Assembly: GCF_000315625.1 (NCBI RefSeq)
Contig: NW_005434639.1
Coordinates: 421,688-485,687 of the forward strand
DNA: 64,000 nucleotides
Direction of reading: 5' to 3'
DNA from: Guillardia theta CCMP2712
Lineage: Eukaryota; Protista; Cryptophyta
Below are positions 38,342-61,630 of this stretch, in pieces. A program made the position numbers and the translations under genes. The notes below the pieces were generated by a model. The model worked only from the letters and a program-made list of their open reading frames with translations, did no database searches and was not told where the DNA came from. The stretch's first letter is position 1; each line of letters begins with the position of its first letter.

Positions 38342-38441
38342 NNNNNNNNNNNNNNNNNNNNNNNNNNNNNNNNNNNNNNNNNNNNNNNNNNNNNNNNNNN
38401 NNNNNNNNNNNNNNNNNNNNNNNNNNNNNNNNNNNNNNNNN
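38342..38441. other. Assembly gap (100 N)
   Basis: Run of n. Confidence 1.
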
Positions 38442-38443
38442 GG

Positions 38444-40563
38444 ATGACGAGAAGAACGGGAAGGGATACTTGCAATGGTCAGACGGCGAGCGATATAACG
38501 GTAGGAGGGGGACGAGGAGGGGACGAGGAGGACGAGGACGAGGACGAGGAGGAAGTGGATGAGGAACAAGAACTAGCTGAAAATGATTCATCAGGCACCT
38601 TCAAGCATGGCGTGAGGAGCGGCAGCGGCGTCAACGTGTGGCCGGATGGCGATGCTTATGAGGTGGAAGAGCTTGCCAGTTGTTGAGCAGCAGCTGAGAG
38701 AGGATGCGCAGGGAGACTATCACAACGACATGCGCGAGGGCAAAGGCACTCAAGTGGGAGCAGATGGAAGCCAGTACGTGGGAGAGTTTCGGGTGACGAC
38801 GTGGAGTGTACAGAAAGAGAAACAGGCTGACATACAAGCAGCTTGACAGAAAGGAAGGTTACGGAGTTTACGAAGCAGCTGACGGAACAAGATATGAAGG
38901 AAGGTTGGTGAAGACAAGGAGGGGGAGAGAGAGCGATGGGGTCAGCGAGACGAGTACAACGAGTGTTTTGATGTTGTCTCAAGCTGGCGACACGACAAAC
39001 CGCATGGAAACGGAACGAAGAGGGTAAGCTGCTTCATGCTAAGCTCACACCTGCCCTTGCCTCCACTCCTCTTCTATCTCCTCTCTCCTGTGATTTCCTC
39101 TCCTCTCTCCTCTCCTCTCCTCTCTCCCCTTCTCTCTCCACTCTCCTCCTATACACTGTCGTCGACTGTAACTGATCGTTTCAGCAGTTTGCAGATGGGG
39201 ATGTCTACTTCGGCGAATGGGCAGACGGTCAGTTTCATGGTCGAGGAAGGTAAGGAAACAGAGGAGCAGCAGGAGCAGGATCAGGAGTGCAGGGACAGAG
39301 CCAGCTAGATGGAGAAGCAGCGAGAGAGCTGACACGTGTTTGAAGCTACACCTATTCCTCCGGCGAGAGATACGAGGGCGACTACTTCCAGGTGGAGAGA
39401 GGAGACCGGGTCGCTTGCCTGACTTGCTGGGATCAGGATCGAGCCGAAGGTCAGGGGACGTACGAGTGGCCCAACGGAGAGATTTACAAGGGTGAGGAGG
39501 AGAGAAGAGGTTCATGGCGGGTCTGGTTGAGAGCGCGAGCAGGAGAGTTTGTCAACGGTAAGAGACATGGCTTCGGCGTTCAGGAGTTTGCCAATGGCGA
39601 GCGATACGAAGTAAGGAGAGAAAGACGTGGAGGCGATATCTTTGACTTGAGACCACAGGGTTTCTGGAAGAATGGCGTGCGCTCTGGGAAGGGTCGGTAA
39701 GTCATTGAGGAGGCTGGAAGGGCAGAGGGGGAGGAGAGAAGAGAAGGAGGGAAAACGCGACAAGGCAAGGGGAAGGGAGGGACAATGACGTTTGTCTTTC
39801 AGGCACCTCTGGCCGAATGGCGACCGATACCGCGGAGAGTTTAAGGACGGAAAGGTGAAGGAGGAAGCTGTGGTGGTTGACAGGGAGGTGCGCACAAGAA
39901 ACCGAGCTGAAGATTCCATTCACAGAGACACGGAATGGGAACTTACTTCTACGCGGACGGAAGGTAAGCAAGCCTCCTCGCTCCTCCTCGCTCCTCCGTT
40001 GCTGATAGCGATCAGGCGTCACTTCGGAAAGTTCGTCAACGACGAGAAGGCCCGGCCTCCTCCCTTCCCCCAGAATTTCAACCCACTGCCTGGTACCCTT
40101 CCTCCCCGTTCTCCGTTCCTTCCCTACTCAAACTTGCGCAGACGACGGGCTCCCTTTCACTTGGAGGATGACGAGGGTGAGGAGGAGAGAAGGAGCAGAG
40201 TCGAGATGACCTCTCGCGACAGGAACACCCCGACATCGAGCAGGAACGAGACATGATGGCAGGAGACGTTGACCAGACAGGGCGGCTGCTGCGGGCGGTG
40301 ACCTGAAGATCATGTTGCCCTCCTCAACAAGACTGAGAGTGGCTTGTCAGGATGGACCCTTCCCCCTCAGTGCTGAAGACTTCCTTGGTGGAAGAGGGGA
40401 GGAGGCAGAGATGTGTGGCGCTGACGTGTGATGCAGTGGACGACGTCATGCCTGACGGGACCTCGGAGGTGGAGACGGAACTTGCTTGGTGTGCTCGTCG
40501 GAAGCCAAGGTTCATGGACAGCGTCTACGATCTCTTCTCATCTGGAGACTTCTTCTTGAACTG
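38444..40563 (+). CDS. MORN-repeat protein, multi-exon (5' end may lie in the gap; 3' end uncertain)
   Basis: Many YxGxF/W..G..HGxG..WPNG units, e.g. GEFVNGKRHGFGVQEFANGERYE and WPNGDRYRGEFKDG. Confidence 0.88.
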
Positions 40564-40719: not shown

Positions 40720-41193
40720 ATCTATCATCACATCAATCTATCATCTCATCAATCTATCATCACATCAATCTATCATCACATCAATCTATCATCACATCAA
40801 TCTATCATCACATCAATCTATCATCTCATCAATCTATCATCTCATCAATCTATCATCACATCAATCTATCATCACATCAATCTATCATCTCATCAATCTA
40901 TCATCTCATCAATCTATCATCTCATCAATCTATCATCTCATCAATCTATCATCTCATCAATCTATCATCACATCAGTCTATCATCTCATCAATCTATCAT
41001 CTCATCAATCTATCATCTCATCAATCTATCATCTCATCAATCTATCATCTCATCAATCTATCATCTCATCAATCTATCATCTCATCAATCTATCATCTCA
41101 TCAATCTATCATCACATCAATCTATCATCTCATCAATCTATCATCACATCAATCTATCATCACATCAATCTATCATCACATCAATCTATCATC
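40720..41193. repeat. 16-bp minisatellite CATCAATCTATCATC(A/T), ~29 units
   Basis: Perfect 16-bp period with a binary A/T variant at the last position. Confidence 0.97.
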
Positions 41194-41971
41194 GCGTAAG
41201 TCTATCATTGCATCAATAGAGGAGATGCAGGAGATGACAATATACATCAATATATATAGAATTCTCTTCTTTTTTCCAGAGTTAGTAAATCTTGAAGCGC
41301 CCTGTCTGTAAGATCCAACATCTGTACACAAATAGCTGTATATAAATTGCACTCATACAGCACGCAAATGCTCATCAGTTTTGGCACCACTGGTTTCTGA
41401 CTGGTTTCTGGCAGCAGTTTTGGTCCATGACGGCCCATATAACAGATCTTTATTAAATGGCTGGCGTACGTATAGAATTTGAGATGCCTCTGAGGGACTA
41501 GGCGTGTCCGGTACGCTCCTGCGTCATGACTATGGGCCTTCCAAGCCATAGCATTTATTGCAGCGAGCATTTCTCCCTCCATCGTACTGACGAACATTTA
41601 AGTGAATATTTTCGACACCGCCTTCGATATCGAGGCGAATTGAGTCAAATAGAATTGAAACTTCAGCAGAAAACTTCAACAATGAAGCAGGGTTTTTACT
41701 TGCAGTCGATCGTCATTCAAACCAGCGTGAAGATCATCGGATAAAATGATTGTATCCTGCTGTACGCCTGTAGCAGGTACCCCTCCAGTAACACAGAGAA
41801 ACCAGGGGGTGAAGGTGGTCAATTTAAAATCTTTTATATGAAGTTTACGTTTTAGGGAGAAGTACCCCGTGGTCTTCCCAGTTTCTTGGGAGTGATAGGG
41901 GTGGGTAGGAGAGAAGGCGGTGCAGCTTTTAAATTTGTTGTCCTCATCTCATCTACGGTTCGCCCACATCC

Positions 41972-44043
41972 ATGATGCGATCGCCTCTCCTCCTCCTCCT
42001 CCTCCTCCTCCTCCTTGACCCTGCACATGCTTCCAGTCACGAAGAGCCTGTCCACCATCCGTCCAGCAAGGGGCTTCACGGCTCCTTCCACATCGCTCCC
42101 GATTTCAAGAAGCTGGCCGACACAATCGCACAAAACATGATGGCGGCGAAGCGAGCTCTCCAGCTCCACAAGCTCCAAGATGCTGGCAAGCCGCAGACAG
42201 GCAGCTCTGTCCGTCAATCTACATCCTGTCCAGACTCTACTCAGGTCATCGCGAACTGCAGCTTAGAGTACTCCAGCATGTACAGCCCAAGTGCCGACAT
42301 GGCAAGCATTTGTCAATCGAGCAGCACCTGCGTCAGTCAGCTGCAGACGCTGTCGAGCAAGTACAAGAGCACAGCCGGATGCTCGACCGACTATCAGGCT
42401 CAGAGTGTCCAGGCCTGGCTGTTACAGATCAAATATGGCTGTGTGAAAGACGGAAGTAAGTACTGCGCGACCACATGGGCGAGCGCTACCGATTTGTCGT
42501 ACAAGGTGGTGGACGCGAGCTGGATAAGACGTCGCGGCTGACAATGCTGTCAGGATCTGTGCAGCTCTGCGTGCTTCAGCCAGTACAGGACCATATACCA
42601 AGAAGTGTACGGGGCCTCTGAAGCCGAGTACCTCAACATGGTGTGCCAGAAGGACTCCAAAGGCAACTACTGCATGGACACGATGACGTCGTCAGAGACA
42701 GCAATGTCCGGCAGCATGATATGCTCTGAGTGCGGCGCGCTGGTACGGCCTGTCGGATCAGGAGGCAGAGAAGCTTGCGGGCTGACAACGTGCGACAGAT
42801 GATAAAGATGTCCCAGTCGTCTGGCGCATCGATCGCTGACAGCAGCGTCGACATCGACACCGTATATGGGGCCATGTGCTCGAAAGGTGATCAGAGCCCG
42901 ACGTGACCAAGCGCTATGAGCTGACGTCATGCTCAGACGGCGACTCCTACTGCTTTGACAAATTCATCGCGGCAGCTTTGTCCACCGGAGCCAGCGGCAG
43001 CAGCAGCTCCGAGACCTGTGACGGGACGAGCTCGACCTGTACCAACGTCTGTAAGGTACGCGCGAGTGCCAGACTGCTCCGGCCGCCTTCCTTCTCAATG
43101 AGTCTTGATGCCTCCCAGAACGACCTCAAGACGGTCAACGACATTGGCTGCTGCGCAGGCTCCATGCTCGCAGCGATCCCTGAATCGAAGAAAGAGGCCG
43201 AGAACGCGGCGAAGCTCTGCTCTCAAAGCCTGCCGAAGCCATGTGAGCTCTGACAGGCCGCACGCGGAGCTTGTGACAGCTGACGTCTCGAGGGGCTGCG
43301 CAGGCGGGGCGGGGCCCTCGTTCAACCTCAAGATCGAGATATCGAACCTCAAGCAGAGCTGGTACGCCGCAAACAAGGCCACCGCAGACCCCTTGGTGAG
43401 TCGCGTCATGTCTCGAGAGAGAAGGCGGCGCCATGCCTGATCTTGAGCAGCTCGCCACGGACATGAACTCGGCCTTCGGCACTACAGCTGGGCAGGTGAG
43501 AGAGAGCGCAGAGGCCCCGCCTGCGCGTGCGATGATGGGCGGGGGGATGACGAGAGGCTGGCAGGCGAAGATGGGGGCGTCGACGGCAGGAGCAGGCGGC
43601 ACTTCCATCGACGTGAGCATCACCACCGCCAACAAAGATCAGGTAACTTCGCTAGACCCGTAAGCGCTGCTCTGATGACGTCACGGCTAGGGTACTGCGG
43701 TAGAGAACAACATCAAAAAGTACAAGGCGAGGCGGAGCGGAAGCGTAAGTCAAGGACTGTGTCTCTGACCGAAGGCGCTGACGGATGGCTGGTAGTCCCT
43801 TAGCCTGGCCACCACGAGCACAAACCTTCCCTCCGACGCCAAGATCGACCCGTCCAAGGCTTTAAGCGTCACGGTCTCGTCCTACGTCAAGGGCTCCTCG
43901 GCTGCCTCGCGATCTCTTGCGTGGTCGGTGCTGTCGGTGGTTGTGCTGAACGTGTTGGTGAGACCTGCGATGCCGGGGCTTGCGAGAGACCTGACGATCA
44001 AGGGCTGCTGCAGGTCGTGGGGAGGATGGGTGCTCATTGGTGA
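41972..44043 (+). CDS. Secreted Cys/Ser/Thr-rich surface protein, gene A copy 1 (apparently intact)
   Basis: Signal peptide MMRSPLLLLLLLLLLDPAHA; repeated C..D..KYC/GNYC/DSYC modules; hydrophobic C-terminus LAWSVLSVVVLNVL. Confidence 0.75.
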
Positions 44044-44484
44044 GGGATAGGATCCTACTGTGAGGATCCGGACTCGTGGAGTGCTCTTTTGGACAAGAGA
44101 AGTGGTAGCCATGAGGCATGAAGAGATCGCAGTCGGATGACCGCGTGAAGCTGATGCTTGACGGAGCCTATGTTGCTGACCGTACTCAATGACAACGTAG
44201 TCATTAGTCACTTGCCACAACACAATACTTACAAAGCTACCTACAAGAATACTTGATAACATACATGATCACGGATCTTTTACACGTTATCCTGGCCCGC
44301 GCACAGACCGACGGTGCTGCTCGATGAGAGCGTGTTGCCGACTGACCATCTCATTGAAACTAGCACTGAGTGTCTTCAAGGTCGTTTCGCAGGCCACTGG
44401 CCTGCAATACTTGATTAAGAGTAAAAACAAACCTTCCAGTCAACAATCAAGGATATTTGAAAACTTGACCAAGGAGATTCCTCA

Positions 44485-47434
44485 ATGGCTGAAGATGATG
44501 TTCTCCAGTCGCTGGTGCGGTTATGGCAGCGGACGGCCTCCCCCTCCTCCCCCTCCTCCCTCCCTCCCCCCTCGTCCTCCTGCCTGCCCAGCGCTCCCGC
44601 AAGTCAGCTTCCTCAGCCCTCCAGTCACTCCTATCAAGCTGCGTTCCTGTCCTCCTGCGCAAGCCTTCCTCATGCGGCGAGGGTAGCCAAGATGAAAGCT
44701 ACTCAAGAAGACTTGCTGCGAATGCTGCTGCTGGCCTGCCGGGAAAGGATCGACGGCCTTTGCTCATCCATGAGGATGAGCGAGGAGGAGAAGACGTCAC
44801 ATCCGGAGTTACTGAGCAGCGAGGTGTCTGAAGGGCTGCTGCTGAAGCTGGAGGATCTCGAAGCAAGGCTGACGAGGGACATGGAGAGCATGAGATCACT
44901 TCTTGCAGGAGTGGCTGAGTACGAGAACCTTCTCCGAGAGCGGGCGATGCTGGAAACAACCTTCACCGACTCCTCCAGGCTGCTGGATCGCACTTCGAAC
45001 TCGTACACTCTTCGGCGATCGGAGGAGCGGTACAAGGCTCTGGTGCTCAAGATCATACCTGAGAGAAGGAAGGAGCTGCTGGGGACGAAGGTACCTTGAC
45101 AGCCCAGATGAAGTGATACCAGCGGACGAGGAAGGTGTACGGGGACGAGGAGCAGAGCAGTCTCAGGTGAAGGCGAGCAGAGGAAATGATATGAAGGGAT
45201 CGCAGAATGTTTCGAAAGAGAGGATAGTCCGCATCCAGCACAATCGTGACAGAGGCGAAGAGCACATCTCCCAAGTCTCACAGTCTATCTCCTTCATCTC
45301 TGCTGCAGAGCCTTCTATAGAGCCAGACGCTTCTCCAGGTCAACCGCTAGTCTCCTCTCTGCACAGTAGCTCAAGTGCTTGTAGCTCGGCGGTCGAAGAA
45401 GCAAGAGCGTGCTTCAAGCCTGCTGATGGACCGGGTGGAAGCCCTGGAGACCTGGGCAAGAGAGCGGTGCGACAGGGGTGGTGTTCTTGACTGCGTGGAC
45501 GTCAGGTCCTGAAGCAGCAAGGAGAGATATCAGCGATGCAGGACCAGGAGAGGCTGATGAGACAAGGTCCGTGATGAGGCGGCTGGTTTTCTGTGCTAAC
45601 CCCTCCTCGCAAGAGCTGGGAGAGTCGGACTCCAAGAGCAGAGACGCGGCTATCCACAAGCTGACAGTGAGGATGAGAAGAATGGAAGGTGGAGTTTCGG
45701 GGCGTCCTCCTGCCCCTGACATGAGCGCAGACATGATGAAGAGATGTCAAGTCGGACAAGACTCGCCCAAGGCAGAGGGTCACACCAATGGTGGGTCTGG
45801 CGCTTGCTGACATGCTGCAGAGAAATCCAAGAGCATGCCTGCGGATGCGTTGGTGCTGAAGAAGGATCATAGCAAACTCCAAGAATCGCTCAAGCTTGCC
45901 CAAGAAAAGATTGTGACGTTGGAGGTTCGGGTCGGGCGCTCGCACCGCCTTGTGACAAGCCGAGCAGGCCAAGCAAGGGAAGCTGATAGAGCAGCTGGCG
46001 GAGCTCTCGCTCAAGCTGCAAGGTGAGTCAGGAGGGAGAGACTCGATGGGATGAGCTCAGGATGAGGTGCAGACAAGAAGTTCGTCCAGCCGTTAGACCT
46101 CAAGTCTGCCTTTCAGAGCTTGTTCCAAGGCTTCACCAACGTCCTCGACCCCTCTCAGCCAAAACGAGCCGGTTCCCCAGCTTTCTCCTTCTCCTGCTCT
46201 GCTCCTGCCCTTGTTTACCTCCTGCTCTGCTCCTGCTCATCCTCCTTCTCGCCTTGTTGGATCCTCAAGTCTCTCTAGGTAACTCGGGTGAGGAGAAGAA
46301 GGTTCGCTTCGCCTACATCGGCGAGCACTTCGCTCACTCGCTACTGAGCGGCTTCAGCGCCATCGAGAAAGTGGAGAAGAAGCATCTTGAGCTCCTGGTC
46401 GAGCTGGAGGAGCAGCGGGAGAGGCACCAGCAGGAGAGGATCGAAATTTCCCGCAAGCTTGCGGACGTCCTGTCGAGATGCGACAACTGCGACACCGTGG
46501 CAGAAGAAGTTAAACTCGACCTGCAGGAGGTCGCTGCTCGCGCAGAGGAAGGGAGGGAGGCAGCTCGGAGCGTGTGCTGTCTGAGCGACGAAGTGATTTC
46601 CTGCCAGCAAGGCTTGGACGAACTCCGCTCGCGCACTGTCATGCTGGAAGAGAGGAGCGGGCAATCTGAGGGGAGCAAGTCAGCACAGAGACAGGGAGAT
46701 GTAAAGCAGGAAGGAGGTACAAGAGAGTGCGGAGAAGAGCATGGGGAGGAGGGGAGGAGCGCGTTGGAGGATCTTTCCTCGCGCGTGTCTCTCCTTGAAG
46801 CTTCTCTGGCAGCCTCTGCTCCCTCTCCCTCTCCCTCTATATCCGCTGAGGCCATCAACGCGCTCAGTGAGGAGCTCACAGAGAGGATAGAGGAGTCTGC
46901 GGCGCGACGAGACAGCAGCCTGATGAAGACGCTGGAGGAGGCGATGCTCTCCTGCGTGTCGCGCGACGACGTGCGAGAGAGTCTGCTGCTGTATGCCAGC
47001 AAGAAGGACCTCAAGGCGAGCGAGAGCAGGACCTGGGAGCGCATCGCCAAGGTCGAGGAGGAGGGAGCGCAGACTTCTGCGATGATCAAGCTGGCGAGGA
47101 AGGAGCTGGAGGGGATGAAGAGTAGCTTCCTCCTCTCCTCGCAGGAGCTCGCGGCAAAGCTCTCGAGCCACGAAGAAGACTGTGCCGAGGCGGTAGACGC
47201 GCTGTCAGGCAGCATTGCACAAGTCTCGTCCGAGCTCTTCAAGTTTGCAGCAAGTCAGTCGGAGCTGTTTGTTCGACGCGACGAGCTCGCCAGCATTCGA
47301 ACCTTGACGAGCAAGGCGGAGAGTGAAGACAACAGAAGCAGCGAGCTAGAGGAGGAGCGGGAGGGGGAAGAGACACAGCAGCATTCGAGGGAAGAGGAGG
47401 CAAAGAAGGATCAGGAGGGGAAAGGAGAGGGAAA
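44485..47434 (+). pseudogene. MAP65/PRC1-like coiled-coil gene B copy 1, frameshifted and 3'-truncated
   Basis: Lacks 50 bp present in copy 2 (59273-59322) at 45080/45081; cut off at 47434 by the inverted-repeat element. Confidence 0.75.
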
Positions 47435-47447
47435 CTTGACGAGACAA

Positions 47448-50031
47448 ATGGTATCAGCATGTGGGTATTGTTGACTTCATTGAAAATTAGCATTGCACTG
47501 CAGTGGTTTTCATCGAGGAATTTCAAATATGGACGACTGAAGACCACCCTGAAGACCATCAAAATAACAGAGGGTCTTGTGACTCTGTACGTAAAAACGA
47601 TGATTCCTGCGTACAATACAACAATAAATCTATTACACTACTAAAATTTAAATATATTCCTATTGCAGTACAATGCTAATAATATCCAAATTAAAACACT
47701 TGAAAACACAATGACAAAATTTCTATTAAGATTATGTTCAATAAATATTAATCACCCATTGCAATAAATATTATTTCAATTAAAATAATATCCAATAAAT
47801 ATTAATCTTGAATCTTGTTGCCATATCAATGTAAATTAATGCTGCAGTGTGGTGCATAAATTACACAATGTAAAACGGCGGTATAGCATGAGCAAAGCGA
47901 ATGCTATGATGAGCACGCAGTGCTCATCTATTCCATTGCAACTTGTGCTACACTTGTTATTCCTATTACACTAGAATACCAACAAGATTCAAGATTCAAC
48001 ATTGGAAAAATATATTATAACCCAATTATATTTATTGAACAAAATTTGAATAAGAATAATAAACAAGATATTTTTCTAATTTCATATCAATGTAAATCAT
48101 TGCTGCATTGCGGTGCATAAATTACACAATGTAAAACGGCGGTATAGCATGAGCAACGCGAATGCTATGATGAGCGCGCAGTGCGAATCTATTCCATTGC
48201 AACTTGAGCTTCACTATTACACTCGCAAACCCTTGATTACAAGTCTTCAGTCGTCCATATTTGAAATTCCTCGATGAAAACCACTGCAGTGCAATGCTAA
48301 TTTTCAATGAAGTCAACAATACCCACATGCTGATACCAAATGGTAGAATTCATACCTTTAAACACAGGCATGAATCCTTAATTAAAAAAATGAATCTGTT
48401 TCAATATCAGTGTCTAAAACATCAACAGATGCCTCCTAAAAAACAATTGGATGACCATATGCCACCAAATATTATCAAATCCGCTGATGCTCCTCTTCCT
48501 AAAACATTTATTGATTTAGAGATTCTTGATTAATTCATTTATAGAACTATTCAATAAAACAAAAATAAATCATATTTTTTTATACTTACTATATACACCT
48601 ATGTCGTGCATGTTTTACACTTTTCCCACACATTTTAACAGCGTTACTGCATGAAATGCGGTGGGCAAGGCCCTATCACTGTTACACTTGCTAAACTTGA
48701 TTACAATGCTTACCATTAATATATCCTTTCAATTATAGCATCACATCACTGTTTGTTTTCACAACATTTCAATAAATATCAACGAGCGTACCCACGGAGT
48801 GGCTTGAACAAACATATTATACATTTGTTTTCCTATTAATTATCTCAGGCATCACGAGCTTAAATAAGTGATGCTCCACCAATCAACCTATTGGAAATAC
48901 ATCTGCAACGATTCTCTCTTTTGAATGTGCGTGAACCTGTAACTCTATATCAACACAAATTTAACATTAATTATCAAAACCAATAAGTGCAACATTTTTT
49001 GTGTGGTGTGATCATGCACGCATATATACATCTGCAACCCGAATACATAAGCAACGATTCTCTCTTTTGGAAATACATCTGCAACTTTTTGGATGTGCGT
49101 GAACCTATAACTCTATAGTAACCTATATCATTCACACCAATAAGTGCAATCCGTTTTTTTGTGTGGTTTGATCATACACTCATATATACATGTGCAACCA
49201 ATTGGAAATACATCAGCAACCTGAATGTATCTGCAACTTTTTGGATGTGCGTGAACCTATAACTCTATAGTAACCTATATCATTCACACCAATAAGTGTA
49301 ATACGTTTTTTTGTGTGGTGTGATCATACACTCATATACACATCTGCAACCAATTGAAAATACATCAGCAACCCGAATGCATCCGCAACGATTCTCTCTT
49401 TTGAATTTGCGTGACTCTGTTAACCTGTGACAACTCAAATCTAACATTAAATATTAAAACCAATAAGTGCAACCTTTTTTGTGTGGTTGCCTCCGGCAAG
49501 CACAGCGTGTGATGATACACGCATATATACATCTGCAACCCGAATGCATCAGGAACCAATTGGAAAGACATTTGCAACCTTTTGGATGTGCGTGAACCTG
49601 TAACTCTATAGTAACCTATATCATTCACACCAATAAGTGCAATACGTTTTTTTGTGTGGTTTGATCATACACTCATATATACATGTGCAACGATTCTCTC
49701 TTTTGAATGTGCGTGAACATGTAACTCTATGACAACCCAAATCTAATATTAAAACCAAAAAGTGCAATACGTTTTTTGTGTGGTTGCCTCCGGCAAGCAA
49801 AGCGGCAAAGCGTGTGATGATACACTCATATATACATCTGCAACCCGAATGCATCAGGAACCAATTGGAAATACATTTGCAACCAATTGGATGTGCGTGA
49901 ACCTGTAACTCTATAGTAACCTATATCATTCACACCAAAAAGTGCAATCCATTTTTTTGTGTGGTGTGATCATGCACGCATATACACATCTGCAACCAAT
50001 TGGAAATATATCTGCAACCCGAATGCATCAG
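47448..50031 (+). repeat. Left terminal inverted repeat arm
   Basis: Reverse complement of 53400-55983. Confidence 0.96.
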
Positions 50032-50340
50032 GAACCAATTGGAAATACATTTTCAACCAATTGGATGTGCGTGAACCTGTAACTCTATATATCAAGTTAA
50101 ATCTAATTTATCATTCCCACCAAAAAGTGCAATCCATTTTTTTGTGTGGTGTGATCATGCACGCATATACACATCTGCAACCAATTGGAAATATATCTGC
50201 AACCCGAATGCATCAGGAACCAATTGGAAATACATTTGCAACCAATTGGATGTGCGTGAACCTGTAACTCTATAGTAACCTATATCATTCCCACCAAAAA
50301 GTGCAATCCATTTTTTTGTGTGGTGTGATCATGCACTCAT
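48890..50340 (+). repeat. Modular subterminal repeat array, 9 units of ~120-185 bp
   Basis: Recurring GTGCGTGAACCTGTAACTCTAT, AAGTGCAA..TTTTTTGTGTGGT and CCAATTGGAAATACAT modules. Confidence 0.92.
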
Positions 50341-50412
50341 ATAAAAAGTAAAGCTTTTGTGGTGTGAGTACTTAAAAAAATGAACATTGAAATATAAGAT
50401 TAAGATAGAAAA

Positions 50413-51250
50413 ATGTCTGATTCCCTAGAAAATTCATTAGGGAAAATAGAGATAGATATGAAAGAATATGTAGAAGAATGGAAAATAGAAGAAGATGTGA
50501 TAACTTATGGGAAACATATATGTTGTGTATGCAATGAAGAAGAAGCGACAATAGAATGTGAGCAATGCAAATCATATCCGATATGTATAGATTGTATAAA
50601 TAATCTAAAGAAGAGATATGTATATTACAAAGAGATATTTGAAGTGAAGGGGATAACACGTAAATATGATGAGAGACATAGTCATAAGATAACATTTGAA
50701 TGTCCATTGTGTAGGAAGGTGAATGAGATAAGCATGTGGAAAGAAGAATTAACGAAGGAGGATGTGATAAAATTCACGTTTGGAGATTATGCATTTATCT
50801 CAATGCTAGTGAATGAGAATAAAATCCTGAATGAAAGCATGAAAAACTCATATCATAGAGATTATCAAGGAGATTATGAAGGAAAACATAGAATTGAAGG
50901 ACTACAAGAAAAGATATGAAGACTTGATGAGATATATAAATGAGAAGAAAGATATATTTGATAAAGAATCGTGCAATATAGAGAATCAGAAATTAAGATT
51001 TAAATTGAGCGATAGTGTAAGGGAAATAAAAGAATTGAAGAGAGAGAAAATGTTGCTAAGAGCATATAATGAAGGTTTATGTCACATGATGGAAAAATAT
51101 AAATCAATGGTGAAAGAAAGTTTTATGAAAGTGGATAGATATACGAAGAGAAAAAGGGATGAATTCATAGGAAAACTAGAATTGCGAATGAGAATAAATG
51201 TAAAAGTGAGAGAGGATAACACTCATGAATGTTATAGTTCATGGATATAA
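50413..51250 (+). CDS. C8-type RING-finger/coiled-coil protein, split by a probable +1 frameshift (ORFs 50413-50919 and 50876-51250)
   Basis: CxxC-x8-CxxC-x5-CxxC-x35-CPLC; the overlapping downstream ORF is heptad-rich; no introns. Confidence 0.7.
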
Positions 51251-51274
51251 AGGTTTTTTATTTATAAAGAGTAA

Positions 51275-51697
51275 ATGTCGTGTTCAGAAAAACAAAGGGG
51301 GGAAGCAAAAGAGGATAAACGAGAATATAGCAACAGGAAGAATAGAGAACACAAGGAACGAATGAAGGCAGACGGTACAATAAAGAAATATTATGATCAG
51401 ATAAACTCATTGAACAGGGAGAAATATCAAAAGAATGAAGAATTCCACAAGATGATGAATGAAATAGTAAGAAGGAATCAACATAGAAGATATAATGAAG
51501 ACCCAGAATATAGAGAGAAGATCAAGAAGAGGAATCAAGAAAGATATTATATGAAAAAACAAGCTGCATTAACAGCAAAAGCAGGTTTGTGCGAAGGAGA
51601 AGATGATCAAACCTTCCTTTCCGAGTCCATCCATGCTTCTATCGTCGACCTTTGCATTGTCAAGATATGGAAAACATCCATCAATTCTATCCAATGA
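51275..51697 (+). CDS. Small basic K/R/E-rich helical protein
   Basis: ATG 24 bp after the previous stop; DPEYREKIKKRNQERYYMKK. Confidence 0.55.
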   Translation: MSCSEKQRGEAKEDKREYSNRKNREHKERMKADGTIKKYYDQINSLNREKYQKNEEFHKMMNEIVRRNQHRRYNEDPEYREKIKKRNQERYYMKKQAALTAKAGLCEGEDDQTFLSESIHASIVDLCIVKIWKTSINSIQ

Positions 51698-53124
51698 ATT
51701 TGGATAGCCCTCAGGTTGCCTCGACTTTGAACCATATCAGTCCAAGGCCAGACCGTCGTTTGCCGTCATGGGACCTGAAAACCTGGAGGGGAGTAGAGTA
51801 CTTTGCTTGGATGGAAGGCTTCCTTGATTGCAAAGGTAGACCAGATGTCAGCACATTTATGAGCTTTGTTGGAAATGGATATTTGTTTTCACCAGCATCT
51901 GTTGTCGGCAATACCATACAGGGATATTTCAGTCTGTCATGTCAGGTGAATCAGCTACAGTATGAAAAGGAAATGCTTACTAGGGAAAATATGGCGCTGA
52001 AAGAGTTGTTGCCAAACGTAGACAGAATTTTGAACTTGACGTTCGAAGACATTTGGAAAGCCAATTATCCCAATGATAAGTGCCCCATGAATGTCGAAGA
52101 TATCCCCAAGGAGTTCGAGTATCGGAAGGAAAAAATTCTCAAAGACATTTTCTCCGAGGTTGGGTCATTATCTGCTTTGTTGTCAAAAGGTATTCGTCAG
52201 ATGTCTGGGCTTAATGGCTCTAGTCAGGCTGGAAAGGCATTCGGCCATCTTTCCACGTTGAGGCAAAATCCGGATTCATTGTTTCATTTCGAAAATTTTT
52301 TGACAGGATATGCTCACGCAATTGCACCGAATTTGGACAGCCGTTGTGAGAGAAATCGCAAAGTCAAAAAAGCCATCCAGAGCTTGTATGATGCAATAGC
52401 TCCCAACGTGGATGAAGTTGGTCTCTTGACTATGGGTCAACAGCTGACACACAAATCTTTGAAATTCGTTCATGACATGATGAAAAAATGCGGAGTCAAA
52501 ATATTTGGAAGTACATCTTCTATCAGTACTTCGAGAGCCAAGCAGAAGAAGCTTGTGACTGACATGGTGGACGGAATCAATGAACTTCCTGGCGGACATG
52601 GTGCTTCCATTCTCAAATTGCTCGAACTGTTGTTCATGAAGCTTGCGCGAGAAGATCCAAACATGTACCTTGTAGAATCCTTGGTGCTTTCCCTCTGTTT
52701 CGATAGCACGAGATTGGGATCATCAGCTCAGTCAGGTACAGAACAGACAGAGTTTGCAATGAATCTCATAGCTGTGTGGAACAAGGCGGTTGACGTTGCA
52801 AACTCTATGTTTGACCAGGAGACCAGAATGAATTCGCCTGCTTCATATATCTCTTTCTTGTTGTTGTACCTGAAGGACACTATCGAGAATATTGACAAGA
52901 ATCTGTGGAATGTCTATGGTTTTGATTTGAAAAGCATCTTGAAGGATCTGTTTGTCACTTGTGAGAACGGAGAGATCAAGAAAATCAAAGCTGGACTTCA
53001 CTTCTACAAGGACAAAGATGGGGTTTTGAACTGCATTGGGGGACGTGATAGAACAGCCAGTGATCCGAATTCCACACCTGATCTCGTCATTGAAATAAAA
53101 AATATTTGGCCTACCCCACCTTAA
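51652..53124 (+). CDS. Putative DDE transposase (RAG1/Transib-like RNase H core), C-terminally truncated
   Basis: 490-aa intron-less ORF; LVLSLCFDST..TEFAMNLIAV..MNSPASYISFLLLYLKDTIENI resembles the RAG1/Transib first catalytic strand and NS..E motif by eye only. Confidence 0.45.
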   Translation: MHCQDMENIHQFYPMNLDSPQVASTLNHISPRPDRRLPSWDLKTWRGVEYFAWMEGFLDCKGRPDVSTFMSFVGNGYLFSPASVVGNTIQGYFSLSCQVNQLQYEKEMLTRENMALKELLPNVDRILNLTFEDIWKANYPNDKCPMNVEDIPKEFEYRKEKILKDIFSEVGSLSALLSKGIRQMSGLNGSSQAGKAFGHLSTLRQNPDSLFHFENFLTGYAHAIAPNLDSRCERNRKVKKAIQSLYDAIAPNVDEVGLLTMGQQLTHKSLKFVHDMMKKCGVKIFGSTSSISTSRAKQKKLVTDMVDGINELPGGHGASILKLLELLFMKLAREDPNMYLVESLVLSLCFDSTRLGSSAQSGTEQTEFAMNLIAVWNKAVDVANSMFDQETRMNSPASYISFLLLYLKDTIENIDKNLWNVYGFDLKSILKDLFVTCENGEIKKIKAGLHFYKDKDGVLNCIGGRDRTASDPNSTPDLVIEIKNIWPTPP

Positions 53125-53399
53125 GACATATGACATAAAAACAAGGGGTAGTCATCGGCTGTCTTGCCTGAGCGGACGGGTGCCTAGAAGATTCAGAAAC
53201 TTTTTGGTACAAAATTTGTACGAAGGGGTCAGGACCCCTCTGGTACAAAACATGCAACGATTTGGTACAAGTATTTTAAAGCCCGTACAAACAAAATGGT
53301 CTGGTACAATAAATTCCAGAAGGGACTTGGAACGGAATGCAACCTAAACCTGCTAAAAAACCAGCTAAACTGCATCCTAATTCCCTGTTAGCATTGGAA

Positions 53400-55983
53400 C
53401 TGATGCATTCGGGTTGCAGATATATTTCCAATTGGTTGCAGATGTGTATATGCGTGCATGATCACACCACACAAAAAAATGGATTGCACTTTTTGGTGTG
53501 AATGATATAGGTTACTATAGAGTTACAGGTTCACGCACATCCAATTGGTTGCAAATGTATTTCCAATTGGTTCCTGATGCATTCGGGTTGCAGATGTATA
53601 TATGAGTGTATCATCACACGCTTTGCCGCTTTGCTTGCCGGAGGCAACCACACAAAAAACGTATTGCACTTTTTGGTTTTAATATTAGATTTGGGTTGTC
53701 ATAGAGTTACATGTTCACGCACATTCAAAAGAGAGAATCGTTGCACATGTATATATGAGTGTATGATCAAACCACACAAAAAAACGTATTGCACTTATTG
53801 GTGTGAATGATATAGGTTACTATAGAGTTACAGGTTCACGCACATCCAAAAGGTTGCAAATGTCTTTCCAATTGGTTCCTGATGCATTCGGGTTGCAGAT
53901 GTATATATGCGTGTATCATCACACGCTGTGCTTGCCGGAGGCAACCACACAAAAAAGGTTGCACTTATTGGTTTTAATATTTAATGTTAGATTTGAGTTG
54001 TCACAGGTTAACAGAGTCACGCAAATTCAAAAGAGAGAATCGTTGCGGATGCATTCGGGTTGCTGATGTATTTTCAATTGGTTGCAGATGTGTATATGAG
54101 TGTATGATCACACCACACAAAAAAACGTATTACACTTATTGGTGTGAATGATATAGGTTACTATAGAGTTATAGGTTCACGCACATCCAAAAAGTTGCAG
54201 ATACATTCAGGTTGCTGATGTATTTCCAATTGGTTGCACATGTATATATGAGTGTATGATCAAACCACACAAAAAAACGGATTGCACTTATTGGTGTGAA
54301 TGATATAGGTTACTATAGAGTTATAGGTTCACGCACATCCAAAAAGTTGCAGATGTATTTCCAAAAGAGAGAATCGTTGCTTATGTATTCGGGTTGCAGA
54401 TGTATATATGCGTGCATGATCACACCACACAAAAAATGTTGCACTTATTGGTTTTGATAATTAATGTTAAATTTGTGTTGATATAGAGTTACAGGTTCAC
54501 GCACATTCAAAAGAGAGAATCGTTGCAGATGTATTTCCAATAGGTTGATTGGTGGAGCATCACTTATTTAAGCTCGTGATGCCTGAGATAATTAATAGGA
54601 AAACAAATGTATAATATGTTTGTTCAAGCCACTCCGTGGGTACGCTCGTTGATATTTATTGAAATGTTGTGAAAACAAACAGTGATGTGATGCTATAATT
54701 GAAAGGATATATTAATGGTAAGCATTGTAATCAAGTTTAGCAAGTGTAACAGTGATAGGGCCTTGCCCACCGCATTTCATGCAGTAACGCTGTTAAAATG
54801 TGTGGGAAAAGTGTAAAACATGCACGACATAGGTGTATATAGTAAGTATAAAAAAATATGATTTATTTTTGTTTTATTGAATAGTTCTATAAATGAATTA
54901 ATCAAGAATCTCTAAATCAATAAATGTTTTAGGAAGAGGAGCATCAGCGGATTTGATAATATTTGGTGGCATATGGTCATCCAATTGTTTTTTAGGAGGC
55001 ATCTGTTGATGTTTTAGACACTGATATTGAAACAGATTCATTTTTTTAATTAAGGATTCATGCCTGTGTTTAAAGGTATGAATTCTACCATTTGGTATCA
55101 GCATGTGGGTATTGTTGACTTCATTGAAAATTAGCATTGCACTGCAGTGGTTTTCATCGAGGAATTTCAAATATGGACGACTGAAGACTTGTAATCAAGG
55201 GTTTGCGAGTGTAATAGTGAAGCTCAAGTTGCAATGGAACAGATTCGCACTGCGCGCTCATCATAGCATTCGCGTTGCTCATGCTATACCGCCGTTTTAC
55301 ATTGTGTAATTTATGCACCGCAATGCAGCAATGATTTACATTGATATGAAATTAGAAAAATATCTTGTTTATTATTCTTATTCAAATTTTGTTCAATAAA
55401 TATAATTGGGTTATAATATATTTTTCCAATGTTGAATCTTGAATCTTGTTGGTATTCTAGTGTAATAGGAATAACAAGTGTAGCACAAGTTGCAATGGAA
55501 TAGATGAGCACTGCGTGCTCATCATAGCATTCGCTTTGCTCATGCTATACCGCCGTTTTACATTGTGTAATTTATGCACCACACTGCAGCATTAATTTAC
55601 ATTGATATGGCAACAAGATTCAAGATTAATATTTATTGGATATTATTTTAATTGAAATAATATTTATTGCAATGGGTGATTAATATTTATTGAACATAAT
55701 CTTAATAGAAATTTTGTCATTGTGTTTTCAAGTGTTTTAATTTGGATATTATTAGCATTGTACTGCAATAGGAATATATTTAAATTTTAGTAGTGTAATA
55801 GATTTATTGTTGTATTGTACGCAGGAATCATCGTTTTTACGTACAGAGTCACAAGACCCTCTGTTATTTTGATGGTCTTCAGGGTGGTCTTCAGTCGTCC
55901 ATATTTGAAATTCCTCGATGAAAACCACTGCAGTGCAATGCTAATTTTCAATGAAGTCAACAATACCCACATGCTGATACCAT
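53400..55983 (-). repeat. Right terminal inverted repeat arm
   Basis: Reverse complement of 47448-50031. Confidence 0.96.
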
Positions 55984-56029
55984 ATTTGGTTGCAGCGCAG
56001 GTGAGCACCCCTACAGTTTAGCGTAAATC

Positions 56030-59000
56030 AAGGGGTGAAGGTGATCAATCTAAAACCCTTTATATGAAGTTGACATTTTAGGGAGAAGTACCCCGTGGTC
56101 TTCCCAGTTTCTTGGGAGTGATAGGGGTGGGTAGGGGAGAAAGGCGGTGCCGCGCTCAAATTCATGATGCGATCGCCTCTCCTCCTCCTCCTCCTCCTCC
56201 TCCTCCTTGACCCCGCACATGCTTCCAGTCACGAAGAGCCTGTCCACCATCCATCCAGCAAGGGGCTTCACGGCTCCTTCCACATCGCTCCCGATTTCAA
56301 GAAGCTGGCCGACACAATCGCACAAAACATGATGGCGGCGAAGCGAGCTCTCCAGCTCCACAAGCTCCAAGATGCTGGCAAGCTGCAGACAGGCAGCTCT
56401 GTCCGTCAATCTACATCCTGTCCAGACTCTACTCAGGTCATCGCGAACTGCAGCTTAGAGTACTCCAGCATGTACAGCCCAAGTGCCGACATGGCAAGCA
56501 TTTGTCAATCGAGCAGCACCTGCGTCAGTCAGCTGCAGACGCTGTCGAGCAAGTACAAGAGCACAGCCGGATGCTCGACCGACTATCAGGCTCAGAGTGT
56601 CCAGGCCTGGCTGTTACAGATCAAATATGGCTGTGTGAAAGACGGAAGTAAGTACTGCGCGACCACATGGGCGAGCGCTACCGATTTGTCGTACAAGGTG
56701 GTGGACGCGAGCTGGATAAGACGTCGCGGCTGACAATGCTGTCAGGATCTGTGCAGCTCTGCGTGCTTCAGCCAGTACAGGACCATATACCAAGAAGTGT
56801 ACGGGGCCTCTGAAGCCGAGTACCTCAACATGGTGTGCCAGAAGGACTCCAAAGGCAACTACTGCATGGACACGATGACGTCGTCAGAGACAGCAATGTC
56901 CGGCAGCATGATATGCTCTGAGTGCGGCGCGCTGGTACGGCCTGTCGGATCAGGAGGCAGAGAAGCTTGCGGGCTGACAACGTGCGACAGATGATAAAGA
57001 TGTCCCAGTCGTCTGGCGCATCGATCGCTGACAGCAGCGTCGACATCGACACCGTATATGGGGCCATGTGCTCGAAAGGTGATCAGAGCCCGACGTGACC
57101 AAGCGCTATGAGCTGACGTCATGCTCAGACGGCGACTCCTACTGCTTTGACAAATTCATCGCGGCAGCTTTGTCCGCCGCAGCCAGCGGCGGCAGCAGCT
57201 CCGAGACCTGTGACGGGACGAGCTCGACCTGTACCAACGTCTGTAAGGTACGCGCGAGTGCCAGACTGCTCCGGCCGCCTTCCTTCTCAATGAGTGCCGA
57301 AAGTAAACATGCCCTAATGAAACCCAACATTTTTTACGTTGATCTGAAGAATCTAGGACGAGGAGCAGAAAAGAATAATGAAAGAGGCCGAGAACGCGGC
57401 GAAGCTCTGCTCTCAAAGCCTGCCGAAGCCATGTGAGCTCTGACAGGCCGCACGCGGAGCTTGTGACAGCTGACGTCTCGAGGGGCTGCGCAGGCGGGGC
57501 GGGGCCCTCGTTCAACCTCAAGATCGAGATATCGAACCTCAAGCAGAGCTGGTACGCCGCAAACAAGGCCACCGCAGACCCCTTGGTGAGTCGCGTCATG
57601 TCTCGAGAGAGAAGGCGGCGCCATGCCTGATCTTGAGCAGCTCGCCACGGACATGAACTCGGCCTTCGGCACTACAGCTGGGCAGGTGAGAGAGAGCGCA
57701 GAGGCCCCGCCTGCGCGTGCGATGATGTGCGGGGGGATGACGAGAGGCTGGCAGGCGAAGATGGGGACGTCGACGGCAGGAGCAGGCGGCACTTCCATCG
57801 ACGTGAGCATCACCACCGCCAACAAAGATCAGGTAACTTCGCTAGACCCGTAAGCGCTGCTCTGATGACGTCACGGCTAGGGTACTGCGGTAGAGAACAA
57901 CATCAAAAAGTACAAGGCAAGGCGGAGCGGAAGCGTAAGTCAAGGACTGTGTCTCTGACCGAAGGCGCTGACGGATGGCTGGTAGTCCCTTAGCCTGGCC
58001 ACCACGAGCACAAACCTTCCCTCCGACGCCAAGATCGACCCGTCAAAGGGTTTCAGCGTCACGGTCTCGTCCTACGTCAAGGCCTCCTCGGCTGCCTCGC
58101 GATCTCTTGCGTGGTCGGTGCTGTCGGTGGTTGTGCTGAACGTGTTGGTGAGACCTGCGATGCTGGGGCTTGCGAGAACCTGACGATCAAGGGCTGCTGC
58201 AGGTCGTGGGGAGGATGGGTGCTCATTGGTGAGGGATAGGATCCTACTGTGAGGATCCGGACTCGTGGAGTGCTCTTTTGGACAAGAGAAGTGGTAGCCA
58301 TGAGGCATGAAGAGATCGCAGTCGGATGACCGCGTGAAGCTGATGCTTGACGGAGCCTATGTTGCTGACCGTACTCAATGACAACGTAGTCATTAGTCAC
58401 TTGCCACAACACAACACTTACAAAGCTACCTAGAAGAATACTTGATAACATTATACATGATCACGGATCTTTTACACGTTATCCTGGCCCGCGCACAGAC
58501 CGACGGTGCTGCTCGATGAGAGCGTGTTGCCGACTGACCATCTCATTGAAACTAGCACTGAGTGTCTTCAAGGTCGTTTCGCAGGCCACTGGCCTGCAAT
58601 ACTTGATTAAGAGTAAAAACAAACCTTCCAGTCAACAATCAAGGATATTTGAAAACTTGACCAAGGAGATTCCTCAATGGCTGAAGATGATGTTCTCCAG
58701 TCGCTGGTGCGGTTATGGCAGCGGACGGCCTCCCCCTCCTCCCCCTCCTCCCTCCCTCCCCCCTCGTCCTCCTGCCTGCCCTGCGCTCCCGCAAGTCAGC
58801 TTCCTCAGCCCTCCAGTCACTCCTATCAAGCTGCGTTCCTGTCCTCCTGCGCAAGCCTTCCTCATGCGGCGAGGGTAGCCAAGATGAAAGCTACTCAAGA
58901 AGACTTGCTGCGAATGCTGCTGCTGGCCTGCCGGGAAAGGATCGACGGCCTTTGCTCATCCATGAGGATGAGCGAGGAGGAGAAGACGTCACATCCGGAG

Positions 59001-61630
59001 TTACTGAGCAGCGAGGTGTCTGAAGGGCTGCTGCTGAAGCTGGAGGATCTCGAAGCAAGGCTGACGAGGGACATGGAGAGCATGAGATCACTTCTTGCAG
59101 GAGTGGCTGAGTACGAGAACCTTCTCCGAGAGCGGGCGATGCTGGAAACAACCTTCACCGACTCCTCCAGGCTGCTGGATCGCACTTCGAACTCGTACAC
59201 TCTTCGGCGATCGGAGGAGCGGTACAAGGCTCTGGTGCTCAAGATCATACCTGAGAGAAGGAAGGAGCTGCTAGAAGCGATAGAGGAGTGGGAGAGGAGC
59301 AACGGGAAGGCGTTCTTGACGTGGGGACGAAGGTACCTGGACAGCCCAGATGAAGTGATACCAGCGGACGAGGAAGGTGTACGGGGACGAGGAGCAGAGC
59401 AGTCTCAGGTGAAAGAGAGGATAGTCCGCATCCAGCACAATCGTGACAGAGGCCAAGAGCACATCTCCCAAGTGTCACAGTCTATCTCCTTCGTCTCTGC
59501 TGCAGAGCCTTCTATAGAGCCAGACGCTTCTCCAGGTCAACCGCTAGTCTCCTCTCTGCACAGTAGCTCAAGTGCTTGTAGCTCGGCGGTCGAAGAAGCA
59601 AGAGCGTGCTTCAAGCCTGCTGATGGACCGGGTGGAAGCCCTGGAGACCTGGGCAAGAGAGCGGTGCGACAGGGGTGGTGTTCTTGACTGCGTGGACGTC
59701 AGGTCCTGAAGCAGCAAGGAGAGATATCAGCGATGCAGGACCAGGAGAGGCTGATGAGACAAGGTCCGTGATGAGGCTGCTGATTTCTGTGCTAACCCCT
59801 CCTCGCAAGAGCTGGGAGAGTCGGACTCCAAGAGCAGAGACGCGGCTATCCACAAGCTGACAGTGAGGATGAGAAGAATGGAAGGTGGAGTTTCGGGGCG
59901 TCCTCCTGCCCCTGACATCAGCGCAGACATGATGAAGAGATGTCAAGTCGGACAAGACTCGCCCAAGGCAGAGGGTCACACCAATGGTGGGTCTGGCGCT
60001 TGCTGACATGCTGCAGAGAAATCCAAGAGCATGCCTGCGGATGCGTTGGTGCTGAAGAAGGATCATAGCAAACTCCAAGAATCGCTCAAGCTTGCCCAAG
60101 AAAAGATTGTGACGTTGGAGGTTCGGGTCGGGCGCTCGCACCGCCTTGTGACAAGCCGAGCAGGCCAAGCAAGGGAAGCTGATAGAGCAGCTGGCGGAGC
60201 TCTCGCTCAAGCTGCAAGGTGAGTCAGGAGGGAGAGACTCGATGGGATGAGCTGAGGATGAGGTGCAGACAAGAAGTTCGTCCAGCCGTCAGACCTCAAG
60301 TCTGCCTTTCAGAGCTTGTTCCAAGGCTTCACCAACGTCCTCGACCCCTCTCAGCCAAAACGAGCCGGTTCCCCAGCTTTCTCCTTCTCCTGCTCTGCTC
60401 CTGCCCTTGTTTACCTCCTGCTCTGCTCCTGCTCATCCTCCTTCTCGCCTTGTTGGACCCTCAAGTCTCTCTAGGTAACTCGGGTGAGGAGAAGAAGGTT
60501 CGCTTCGCCTACATCGGCGAGCACTTCGCTCACTCGCTACTGAGCGGCTTCAGCGCCATCGAGAAAGTGGAGAAGAAGCATCTTGAGCTCCTGGTCGAGC
60601 TGGAGGAGCAGCGGGAGAGGCACCAGCAGGAGAGGATCGAAATTTCCCGCAAGCTTGCGGACGTCCTGTCGAGATGCGACAACTGCGACACCGTGGCAGA
60701 AGAAGTTAAACTCGACCTGCAGGAGGTCGCTGCTCGCGCAGAGGAAGGGAGGGAGGCAGCTCGGAGCGTGTGCTGTCTGAGCGACGAAGTGATTTCCTGC
60801 CAGCAAGGCTTGGACGAACTCCGCTCGCGCACTGTCATGCTGGAAGAGAGGAGCGGGCAATCTGAGGGGAGCAAGTCAGCACAGAGACAGGGAGATGTTA
60901 AGCAGGAAGGAGGTACAAGAGAGTGCGGAGAAGAAGATGGGGAGGAGGGGAGGAGCGCGTTGGAGGATCTTTCCTCGCGCGTGTCTCTCCTTGAAGCTTC
61001 TCTGGCTGCCTCTGCTCCCTCTCCCTCTCCCTCTATATCCGCTGAGGCCATCAACGCGCTCAGTGAGGAGCTAACAGAGAGGATGGAGGAGTCTGCGGCG
61101 CGACGAGACAGCAGCCTGATGAAGACGCTGGAGGAGGCGATGCTCTCCTGCGTGTCGCGCGACGACGTGCGAGAGAGTCTGCTGCTGTATGCCAGCAAGA
61201 AGGACCTCAAGGCGAGCGAGAGCAGGACCTGGGAGCGCATCGCCAAGGTCGAGGAGGAGGGAGCGCAGACTTCTGCGATGATCAAGCTGGCGAGGAAGGA
61301 GCTGGAGGGGATGAAGAGTAGCTTCCTCCTCTCCTCGCAGGAGCTCGCGGCAAAGCTCTCGAGCCACGAAGAAGACTGTGCCGAGGCGGTAGACGCGCTG
61401 TCAGGCAGCATTGCACAAGTCTCGTCCGAGCTCTTCAAGTTTGCAGCAAGTCAGTCGGAGCTGTTTGTTCGACGCGACGAGCTCGCCAGCATTCGAACCT
61501 TGACGAGCAAGGCGGAGAGTGAAGACAACAGAAGCAGCGAGCTAGAGGAGGAGCGGGAGGGGGAAGAGACACAGCAGCATTCGAGGGAAGAGGAGGCAAA
61601 GAAGGATCAGGAGGGGAAAGGAGAGGGAAA
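56030..61630 (+). repeat. Segmental duplication copy 2
   Basis: Near-identical to 41800-47434. Confidence 0.97.
56164..58232 (+). pseudogene. Secreted Cys-rich gene A copy 2, damaged
   Basis: 57296-57379 replaces the 86 bp (43104-43189 in copy 1) that carry a splice acceptor and the exon start NDLKTVNDIGCCAGSMLAAIPES. Confidence 0.7.

Follow-up and report, generated by a model that had tools for sequence, protein, structure and literature searches.

In maize, alternative transposition inserts one end of a transposon at a site that has yet to replicate; replication then copies this end and the adjoining DNA a second time and stalls, and the broken ends are joined. Transposition between sister chromatids with such re-replication is described as giving composite insertions with inverted repeats of 1.8–3.9 kb (bioRxiv 2020.01.07.897926; PMC4270019). 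Long inverted arms are also known from Foldback/Galileo elements, and Galileo terminal inverted repeats (TIRs) are reported to recruit neighbouring DNA (PMC3573991). Among virus-like elements, Polinton-like viruses (PLVs) are said to span 14–40 kb between TIRs, often with a target duplication of 4–6 bp (PMC12220804), and transpovirons to carry a superfamily 1 (SF1) helicase gene (PMC5499653). Here these systems were compared with an 8536-bp unit, 47448..55983, in a window of Guillardia theta CCMP2712 DNA (the whole stretch of 64 kb that was analysed, from contig NW_005434639.1; all positions are those of the window). The unit is read as a mosaic of a miniature inverted-repeat transposable element (MITE), a spacer, a tandem array, three orphan open reading frames (ORFs) and a truncated transposase, and its mirror symmetry is attributed, with a probability of roughly 60 %, to a single recent event that started from a MITE end.

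The inverted repeat is real and does not form the termini of a single element. As the first-pass annotation of this DNA had claimed, 47448–50031 is the reverse complement of 53400–55983, with 2584 of 2584 positions aligned, no gaps and thus no net indel. The substitution that it had listed (A at 48191, C at 55240) proved to be the sole mismatch, and its estimates of an AT-rich unit made up to about 60 % of arms agree with the computed values (arms 60.5 % of 8536 bp; GC content 0.36, compared with 0.57 in the left flank and near 0.55 in the host). Inverted-repeat matching ended abruptly at all boundaries of both arms. Runs of N were present in the 64-kb window only at 4235–4368 and 38342–38441, so the unit lies inside one gap-free stretch. 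From the outside in, each arm comprises the 888-bp MITE, a spacer of 542 bp and a portion of a tandem array (Table 1). The inverted repeat of 95 bp nested in each arm, the array and the 5.6-kb direct repeats of host DNA that flank the unit (A on the left, A′ on the right) had been overlooked in the first pass.

Contigs from public sequencing runs were used to examine depth and junctions, principally those of X1 and X2. This evidence covers 24 of 292 pieces and 18 of 76 loose ends, contig depth is not copy number, and X2 is possibly the source of the assembly and so not independent. The 888-bp element is non-coding, ends in TIRs, is present in several copies and has at its left copy a perfect AAAT pair as a 4-bp AWWT target duplication. 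AWWT target sites are given as a hallmark of Sola1, for which a MITE with GG ends has been tabulated (PMC3845634), and like Sola1 MITEs the element combines the AWWT duplication and GG...CC ends with the absence of coding sequence and with several variants in the genome; it is probably Sola1-like. Two other variants of the family were found in X1 (depth 208 and 261), and contigs with loose ends at 48256/55175 revealed that other elements have the same outer TIR.

The right arm stops exactly at the CC of its MITE (55981), which is followed by ATAT. AWWT was found at 27 of 5601 positions in A′, at 733 of 64000 in the window and at 7 of 189 next to the right junction; because the MITE end abuts a 4-mer that is uncommon by these counts, the right outer junction looks transposase-made. 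The unit as a whole has no matched target duplication (AAAT on the left, ATAT on the right), and since the two outer 4-mers differ it did not insert as a whole. When the MITE is removed, one frame is open over the empty site into the spacer ORF, but only five codons lie upstream and the result has little weight.

Which of the arms is the copy can be read from the array, which extends 312 bp beyond the inner arm boundary on the left side only. Past that boundary, on the left side of the unit, the sequence continues as in all four plus-strand units with the same motif (4/4), whereas in the right arm an array unit is interrupted and joined to a unique 60-bp stretch. Since the array keeps its phase on the left and breaks off mid-unit on the right, the left arm is taken to be the parent and the right arm the copy. 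The flanking repeats provide a measure of age. End to end, A and A′ (5.6 kb) gave 5472 matches, 71 substitutions and 18 gaps, and the exon that is cut at the end of A continues in A′. Excluding 170 bp at the 5′ end and a single replaced block, the two differ at 33 of 5325 positions, approximately 16 times the divergence of the arms (1 of 2584). At the A/A′ rate 16 differences would be expected between the arms and one was seen (P(≤1) = 1.9e-6), so the arms are much younger than A/A′ or have been homogenised, in line with the first-pass description of a young or homogenised repeat. Two other views of A/A′ were rejected: as alleles, the nucleus being reported haploid (PMC4007541), and as a giant target duplication made together with the arms, for which the same 16 differences would be expected.

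The nested parts with their limits, the arm that is cut and the truncated transposase are observed; the following order of events, and the enzyme in it, are proposed. AT-rich foreign DNA (spacer, array and ORF1–3; possibly viral) and a deleted RAG1/Chapaev-like transposon would have come to lie between two 5.6-kb host copies, and a Sola1-like MITE would then have inserted at AAAT near the left edge. By the first route, a transposase acting in trans would have linked the outer MITE end, taken from a sister chromatid, in inverted orientation to another AWWT site some 8.5 kb distant; replication, running back over the MITE, the spacer and the array, would have stalled after 2.6 kb and the broken end would have been joined to 53399. 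By the second route, which gives the same product, the MITE would have made a local hop, and a break at the new copy would have been mended with the left copy and the DNA next to it as template; this route resembles the way in which Galileo TIRs are extended (PMC3573991). The first route would account for a right arm that starts where a MITE end meets a new AWWT site, for the near-identity of the arms and for the mid-unit stop, and it is modestly favoured over the second. The position of the single arm mismatch within the MITE slightly favours the second route, but by length alone it would be expected there one-third of the time. In either case the unit would be non-autonomous, as none of its parts is predicted to cut DNA, and it is unlikely to represent a giant mobile element of a new kind.

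Comparison with the maize Ac/Ds composite insertions (p1-ww-id1, p1-ww-id4; TDDCI alleles) revealed a transposon end at the outer junction with a duplicated flank behind it, an inverted kilobase-scale copy of transposon and flank, an abrupt inner joint and duplications alongside in both cases. The Guillardia unit differs from them in its Sola1-like MITE ends, in the 3.4 kb of unique DNA between the arms, in a flanking direct repeat that is older than the arms and in having no progenitor or reciprocal allele to set beside it. Its resemblance to a composite insertion is a working analogy rather than a proven case. Compared with Galileo/Foldback elements, the unit likewise has long, inverted, internally repetitive arms with tandem repeats that have been lengthened by adjoining DNA (PMC3573991). 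Galileo, however, is a member of the P superfamily with target duplications of 7 bp, and the DNA that its arms incorporate is internal to the element, whereas here the captured DNA came from outside the MITE, no matched duplication lies outside the arms, and no P-superfamily transposase belongs to them, the transposase piece being RAG1-like and not tied to the arm ends.

Several results weigh against an inverted duplication driven by a MITE end. There is no matched target duplication at the outer junctions, unlike in maize, and the Sola1-like label of the MITE derives from the 4-bp site and the ends, no cognate transposase having been identified. The right flank might consist of old array DNA, since the 10 bases that follow ATAT match the array (E 1.9). 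Depth was also higher than a simple duplication would give: in X1 the spacer (236.7) and the arm array (246.3) stood at 3.7 and 3.8 times ORF1–3 (64.1), and in X2 the spacer stood at 3.3 times ORF1–3, not 2 times. An X1 contig of single-copy depth (64.8) carries an extra spacer base found in neither arm. From an arm depth of 3.3–3.8 times ORF1–3 and this variant contig, one or two more copies of arm DNA are probably present elsewhere. Relative to ORF1–3, X1 depth was 1.6–1.8 times for ORF4 and 1.6–2.1 times for host segment A, and the depth of the ORF1–3 contigs was not above that of A. None of the contigs listed bridges 53399/53400 or 55981/55982, and these junctions rest on the assembly. Finally, the proposed event does not account for how A/A′ came to be duplicated.

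The core between the arms contains the four same-strand ORFs that had been reported in the first pass (50413–50919, 50876–51250, 51275–51697 and 51667–53124), and the claim that it is virus-like and transposase-like held for the transposase and, as a lead only, for the viral look-alikes of ORF1. ORF4 was 99 % identical (473 of 477 residues) to the first part of the 881-aa G. theta protein P0005, after which the match ends. A named G. theta protein that ORF4 matches at 99 % shares a cluster with the gene model of the window, so the host is G. theta. By sequence comparison and fold model ORF4 is a RAG1/Transib-fold transposase whose truncation removes two of the three predicted catalytic residues; D346 is kept and D484, E796 and the Cys/His motifs are missing. 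With only D346 of the predicted triad left, the window copy is predicted to be dead. Downstream, breaks in the X1 contigs fall at 53097 and 53100 and two X1 contigs diverge at 53339, contig 14 of X2 spans 52280–53333, and four TGGTACAA repeats are located at 53205–53309. On the basis of these breaks and repeats, an internal deletion appears to have brought ORF4 up against the end of its own transposon, which lies 60 bp before the right arm. ORF4 was considered as the unit's own transposase and rejected: it is truncated, its own end lies inside the core and the TGGTACAA repeats are absent from the arms.

ORF1–3 gave fewer leads. The RING/B-box matches of ORF1 in Pfam were below the cut-off (best E 0.0022), its top three Atlas clusters were viral (score 0.91–0.92; a lead only), and no homologue was found among 82 candidates or in viral or metagenome contigs. 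Nothing below E 0.028 was found for ORF2 in Pfam and PHROGs, the sole databases scanned with it, and ORF3 had no homologue among five candidates and none in viral contigs. An X6 contig departs at 51563 and an X2 contig enters at 51615 with other DNA upstream; since the contigs diverge at these points, ORF1–3 and ORF4 are regarded as separate modules fused here, and the loose ends at 51563, 51615 and 53339 place core modules beside other neighbours elsewhere. The first-pass view of a single Foldback/Galileo-like element with 2.6-kb terminal repeats is not supported, given arm ends that are nested MITE ends, outer 4-mers that differ, a right arm cut mid-unit, core pieces with other neighbours in public contigs, and a truncated RAG1/Transib-like transposase whose own end lies at about 53339 inside the core. 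Run X6, labelled as a freshwater metagenome, contained contigs approximately 97 % like ORF1–3 (50311–51563), whose depth was about double that of the ORF4 contigs in the same run and which continued differently after 51563; host segment A was also present in X6.

Bacterial composite transposons are moved whole by their insertion sequences. By analogy, the unit could be a mobile composite, or macro-transposon, in which two inverted MITEs form the caps and a Sola1-like transposase moves the whole, with the virus-like genes and the RAG1-fold transposase piece as cargo. This locus would then be the birthplace and the extra arm copies would be daughters with other cores elsewhere. Such a composite would fit two outer ends that are intact MITE ends on AWWT sites, a depth that suggests about four arm copies and the existence of the spacer variant. 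We consider it unlikely, as the differing outer 4-mers indicate that this copy did not arrive as a unit, each MITE has a closer partner end of its own, and the depth of ORF1–3 equals that of the spacer variant (64.1 and 64.8), so that a daughter would need another core. Slightly less probable again is that a linear virus-like element (PLV, virophage, transpoviron or linear plasmid) once integrated here, with spacer and array as its native TIRs; the MITE would have inserted into one of these TIRs and been copied into its counterpart, and the rest of the element would have been lost by deletion. Three integrated PLVs have been described in G. theta (PMC4642659) and the TIRs of cryptophyte PLVs are reported to reach hundreds or thousands of bases (PMC12220804); the unit shares with PLVs and mimivirus transpovirons its low GC content and long inverted ends, is near to transpoviron size (~7 kb; PMC5499653), has tightly packed same-strand ORFs with viral Atlas clusters nearest to ORF1, and its four arm copies would suit two elements. 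The hallmark genes (compared also with PMC4642659 and PMC10120064) were nevertheless not found. No capsid, packaging ATPase, polymerase, helicase or integrase was found among the four ORFs in Pfam, or among ORF1–3 in PHROGs, the homologue and Atlas searches not extending to ORF2. This includes the capsid module, protein-primed DNA polymerase (pPolB) or primase-helicase, and rve integrase or tyrosine recombinase, the sole long ORF being the RAG1-fold piece, as well as the SF1 helicase gene of transpovirons. With no Polinton, PLV or transpoviron hallmark gene, the first-pass alternative of an integrated linear plasmid, transpoviron or Polinton-like remnant is not upheld. Moreover, the arm symmetry stops at MITE ends, the right arm is cut inside an array unit, the unit (8536 bp, without a matched duplication) is shorter than the 14–40 kb of PLVs, and ORF1, ORF3, the MITE-end motif and the array motif had no match in viral contigs.

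An assembly error, in which repetitive MITE or arm sequence led to a false join of the right arm or of A′, is the least probable of these alternatives. The arms are near-identical and repeated, which would invite such an error at the right-hand junctions that no listed contig bridges. Against it, no N gap lies here, and arm depth at least 2 times that of ORF1–3 in two runs argues that the arms are not one arm read twice, the fold-back artefact that the first-pass annotation had foreseen. The left junction is bridged by contig 9 of X2, which covers A and continues into the MITE as far as 47478; an X1 contig ends exactly at 47434, the point where A and A′ diverge. The 60-bp and 41-bp junction stretches are unique within the window, and A and A′ carry different lesions in a nucleus reported haploid (PMC4007541) and so are not alleles.

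Table 1. Coordinates of the features of the inverted unit and its flanks
Feature	Position	Strand	Basis
Direct repeat A, host segment, cut mid-exon at 47434	41799..47434	+	window self-comparison
11-bp linker, broken host exon to MITE target site	47435..47445	+	spanned by X2 contig 9 up to 47478
AAAT, MITE target duplication, left half	47446..47449	+	right half 48338–48341
Left arm, parent copy (MITE, spacer and first part of array)	47448..50031	+	array in phase past 50031
MITE, 888 bp, 95-bp exact TIRs, GG...CC ends, 133-bp internal direct repeat, Sola1-like by target site	47450..48337		window sequence; family variants and loose ends in X1, X2
AT-rich spacer, GC 0.325; start reads as gene 3′ end, stop 48533	48342..48883	+	window ORFs
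Tandem array, diverged units of about 120–185 bp	48884..50343	+	repeat finding in window
ORF1, 168 aa, RING-like zinc finger, orphan	50413..50919	+	sub-cut-off Pfam RING/B-box matches
ORF2, 124 aa, charged, unassigned	50876..51250	+	ORF list
ORF3, 140 aa, charged, chimeric 3′ end (joint between 51563 and 51615)	51275..51697	+	contig loose ends
ORF4, first 477 residues of 881-aa predicted RAG1/Transib-fold DDE transposase	51667..53124	+	P0005 comparison, alignment, fold model
Likely transposon 3′ end, four TGGTACAA repeats, fused to ORF4 by internal deletion	53100..53339	+	contig breaks, window repeats
Unique 60-bp stretch, transposon end to right arm; one frame open	53340..53399	+	window sequence
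Right arm, derived copy, ends inside array unit at 53400	53400..55983	-	inverted-repeat and array comparison
Second MITE copy; ATAT (55982–55985) beside outer end, ATTT beside inner end	55094..55981		window sequence
Direct repeat A′, host segment, last exon continues past 61630	56025..61630	+	window self-comparison

The family to which ORF4 belongs was investigated through P0005. A profile search identified 33 relatives, and 17 of the 31 new ones, chosen for how much of the catalytic region they cover, were aligned with P0005, P0002 and P0003 to give 20 rows; conservation was counted over the rows with a residue at the column concerned. The predicted triad was conserved at D346 (13/14), D484 (12/12) and E796 (10/12), as were C508 (12/12), C511 (13/13), H628 (16/16), H765 (13/13) and H771 (12/13). 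The motifs DDE, C(2)C, LH and H(4)H are described for Chapaev (PMC4079192). Full-length P0005 possesses the DDE triad and the C(2)C and LH motifs; its His pair H765/H771 is spaced by five residues, not four, whilst that of P0034 is spaced by four. A fold model built from the 20-sequence alignment (predicted local distance difference test, pLDDT, 73.9) matched RAG1 (E 4.2e-10), BbRAGL (E 1.2e-6) and HzTransib (E 2.9e-6) in Foldseek, with TM-scores by target of ~0.5, and the P element only at E 0.052. An earlier model from three sequences (pLDDT 42) had given no match at E 0.001. The top Atlas cluster for the transposase was DUF1280, which has been equated with Chapaev (PMC3985635), and RAG1 clusters were also found. 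No Pfam family reached the cut-off, no significant match was obtained among PDB sequences, and a search of metagenome and viral contigs with the transposase alignment gave no related locus. The apparent transposon end at 53339, which is based on two X1 contigs and has no opposite end here, reads 5′-CATT and not 5′-CAC, the terminus that marks Chapaev/Transib elements together with a target duplication of 3–5 bp. By modelled fold and motifs the transposase fits the Chapaev/Transib/RAG1 group, from which the His spacing of P0005, the apparent end without CAC and the truncation of the window copy set it apart.

Ten proteins of G. theta and Hanusia phi (P0005, P0001, P0002, P0007, P0008, P0040, P0003, P0009, P0012 and P0018) have the predicted RAG1/Transib fold and are annotated as hypothetical. 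GUITHDRAFT_149260, 149100 and 149489 are near-identical to each other and ~58 % identical to P0005, and their sequences suggest recent spread of this group. RAG-like elements have been reported in Aureococcus, with fragments in other early eukaryotes (PMC9435367), and one supplement to it names no Guillardia, Cryptophy-, Hanusia or Chapaev. A literature search, outside which Repbase, Dfam and bioRxiv supplements may contain such families, gave no paper joining Guillardia, Transib and RAG1.

Further features were noted in the arms and flanks. The spacer had no match to Pfam or PHROG profiles, and within it a stretch of ~68 bp (48781–48848), flanked on either side by loose ends in X1 and X2, is a small repeat common to other loci that contains a short hairpin. 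An Rfam scan of 40000–62000 gave no match. From 6 % of RNA run X21, 21 reads were placed, 16 of them only 90–95 % alike; the run was uninformative, as depth over the host exon was also 0. The two host copies have decayed in opposite directions. A carries a frameshifting 50-bp deletion at 45079, in an exon that in A′ matches MAP65/ASE1 in Pfam (E 2.8e-19), and is cut at 47434; in A′, ~80 bp are replaced near 57300–57380, in a cysteine-rich gene, and 45 bp are deleted at 59410. The first ~190 bp of the pair (41772–41970 and 55996–56165) are far less alike than the rest, as if from an older paralogue, and the first 500 bp contain 16 substitutions and a 35-bp indel. An X1 contig over the end of A has, at full depth, a 5-bp insertion at 47129 that is absent from both window copies and from X2. 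A 16-bp minisatellite (40720–41217; 31 copies, 95 % matched) lies 580 bp upstream of A, and a many-exon host gene at 38442–40100 contains short Gly-/Tyr-rich repeats, which we take to resemble MORN repeats.

In form the unit resembles a Foldback element, and in its workings a composite insertion; on the reading favoured here it represents a rearrangement of the locus and not a new class of element. If this reading is true, alternative transposition, studied mainly in maize Ac/Ds, would be acting in a haploid alga through another superfamily, and the locus would show how a long-TIR look-alike can arise from a MITE. Such inverted repeats are reported to give small RNAs that silence the transposon in maize (bioRxiv 2020.01.07.897926). 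The side result may matter more: G. theta and Hanusia phi carry a family of RAG1/Transib-fold transposases, labelled no more than hypothetical proteins, that includes near-identical and intact-looking copies.

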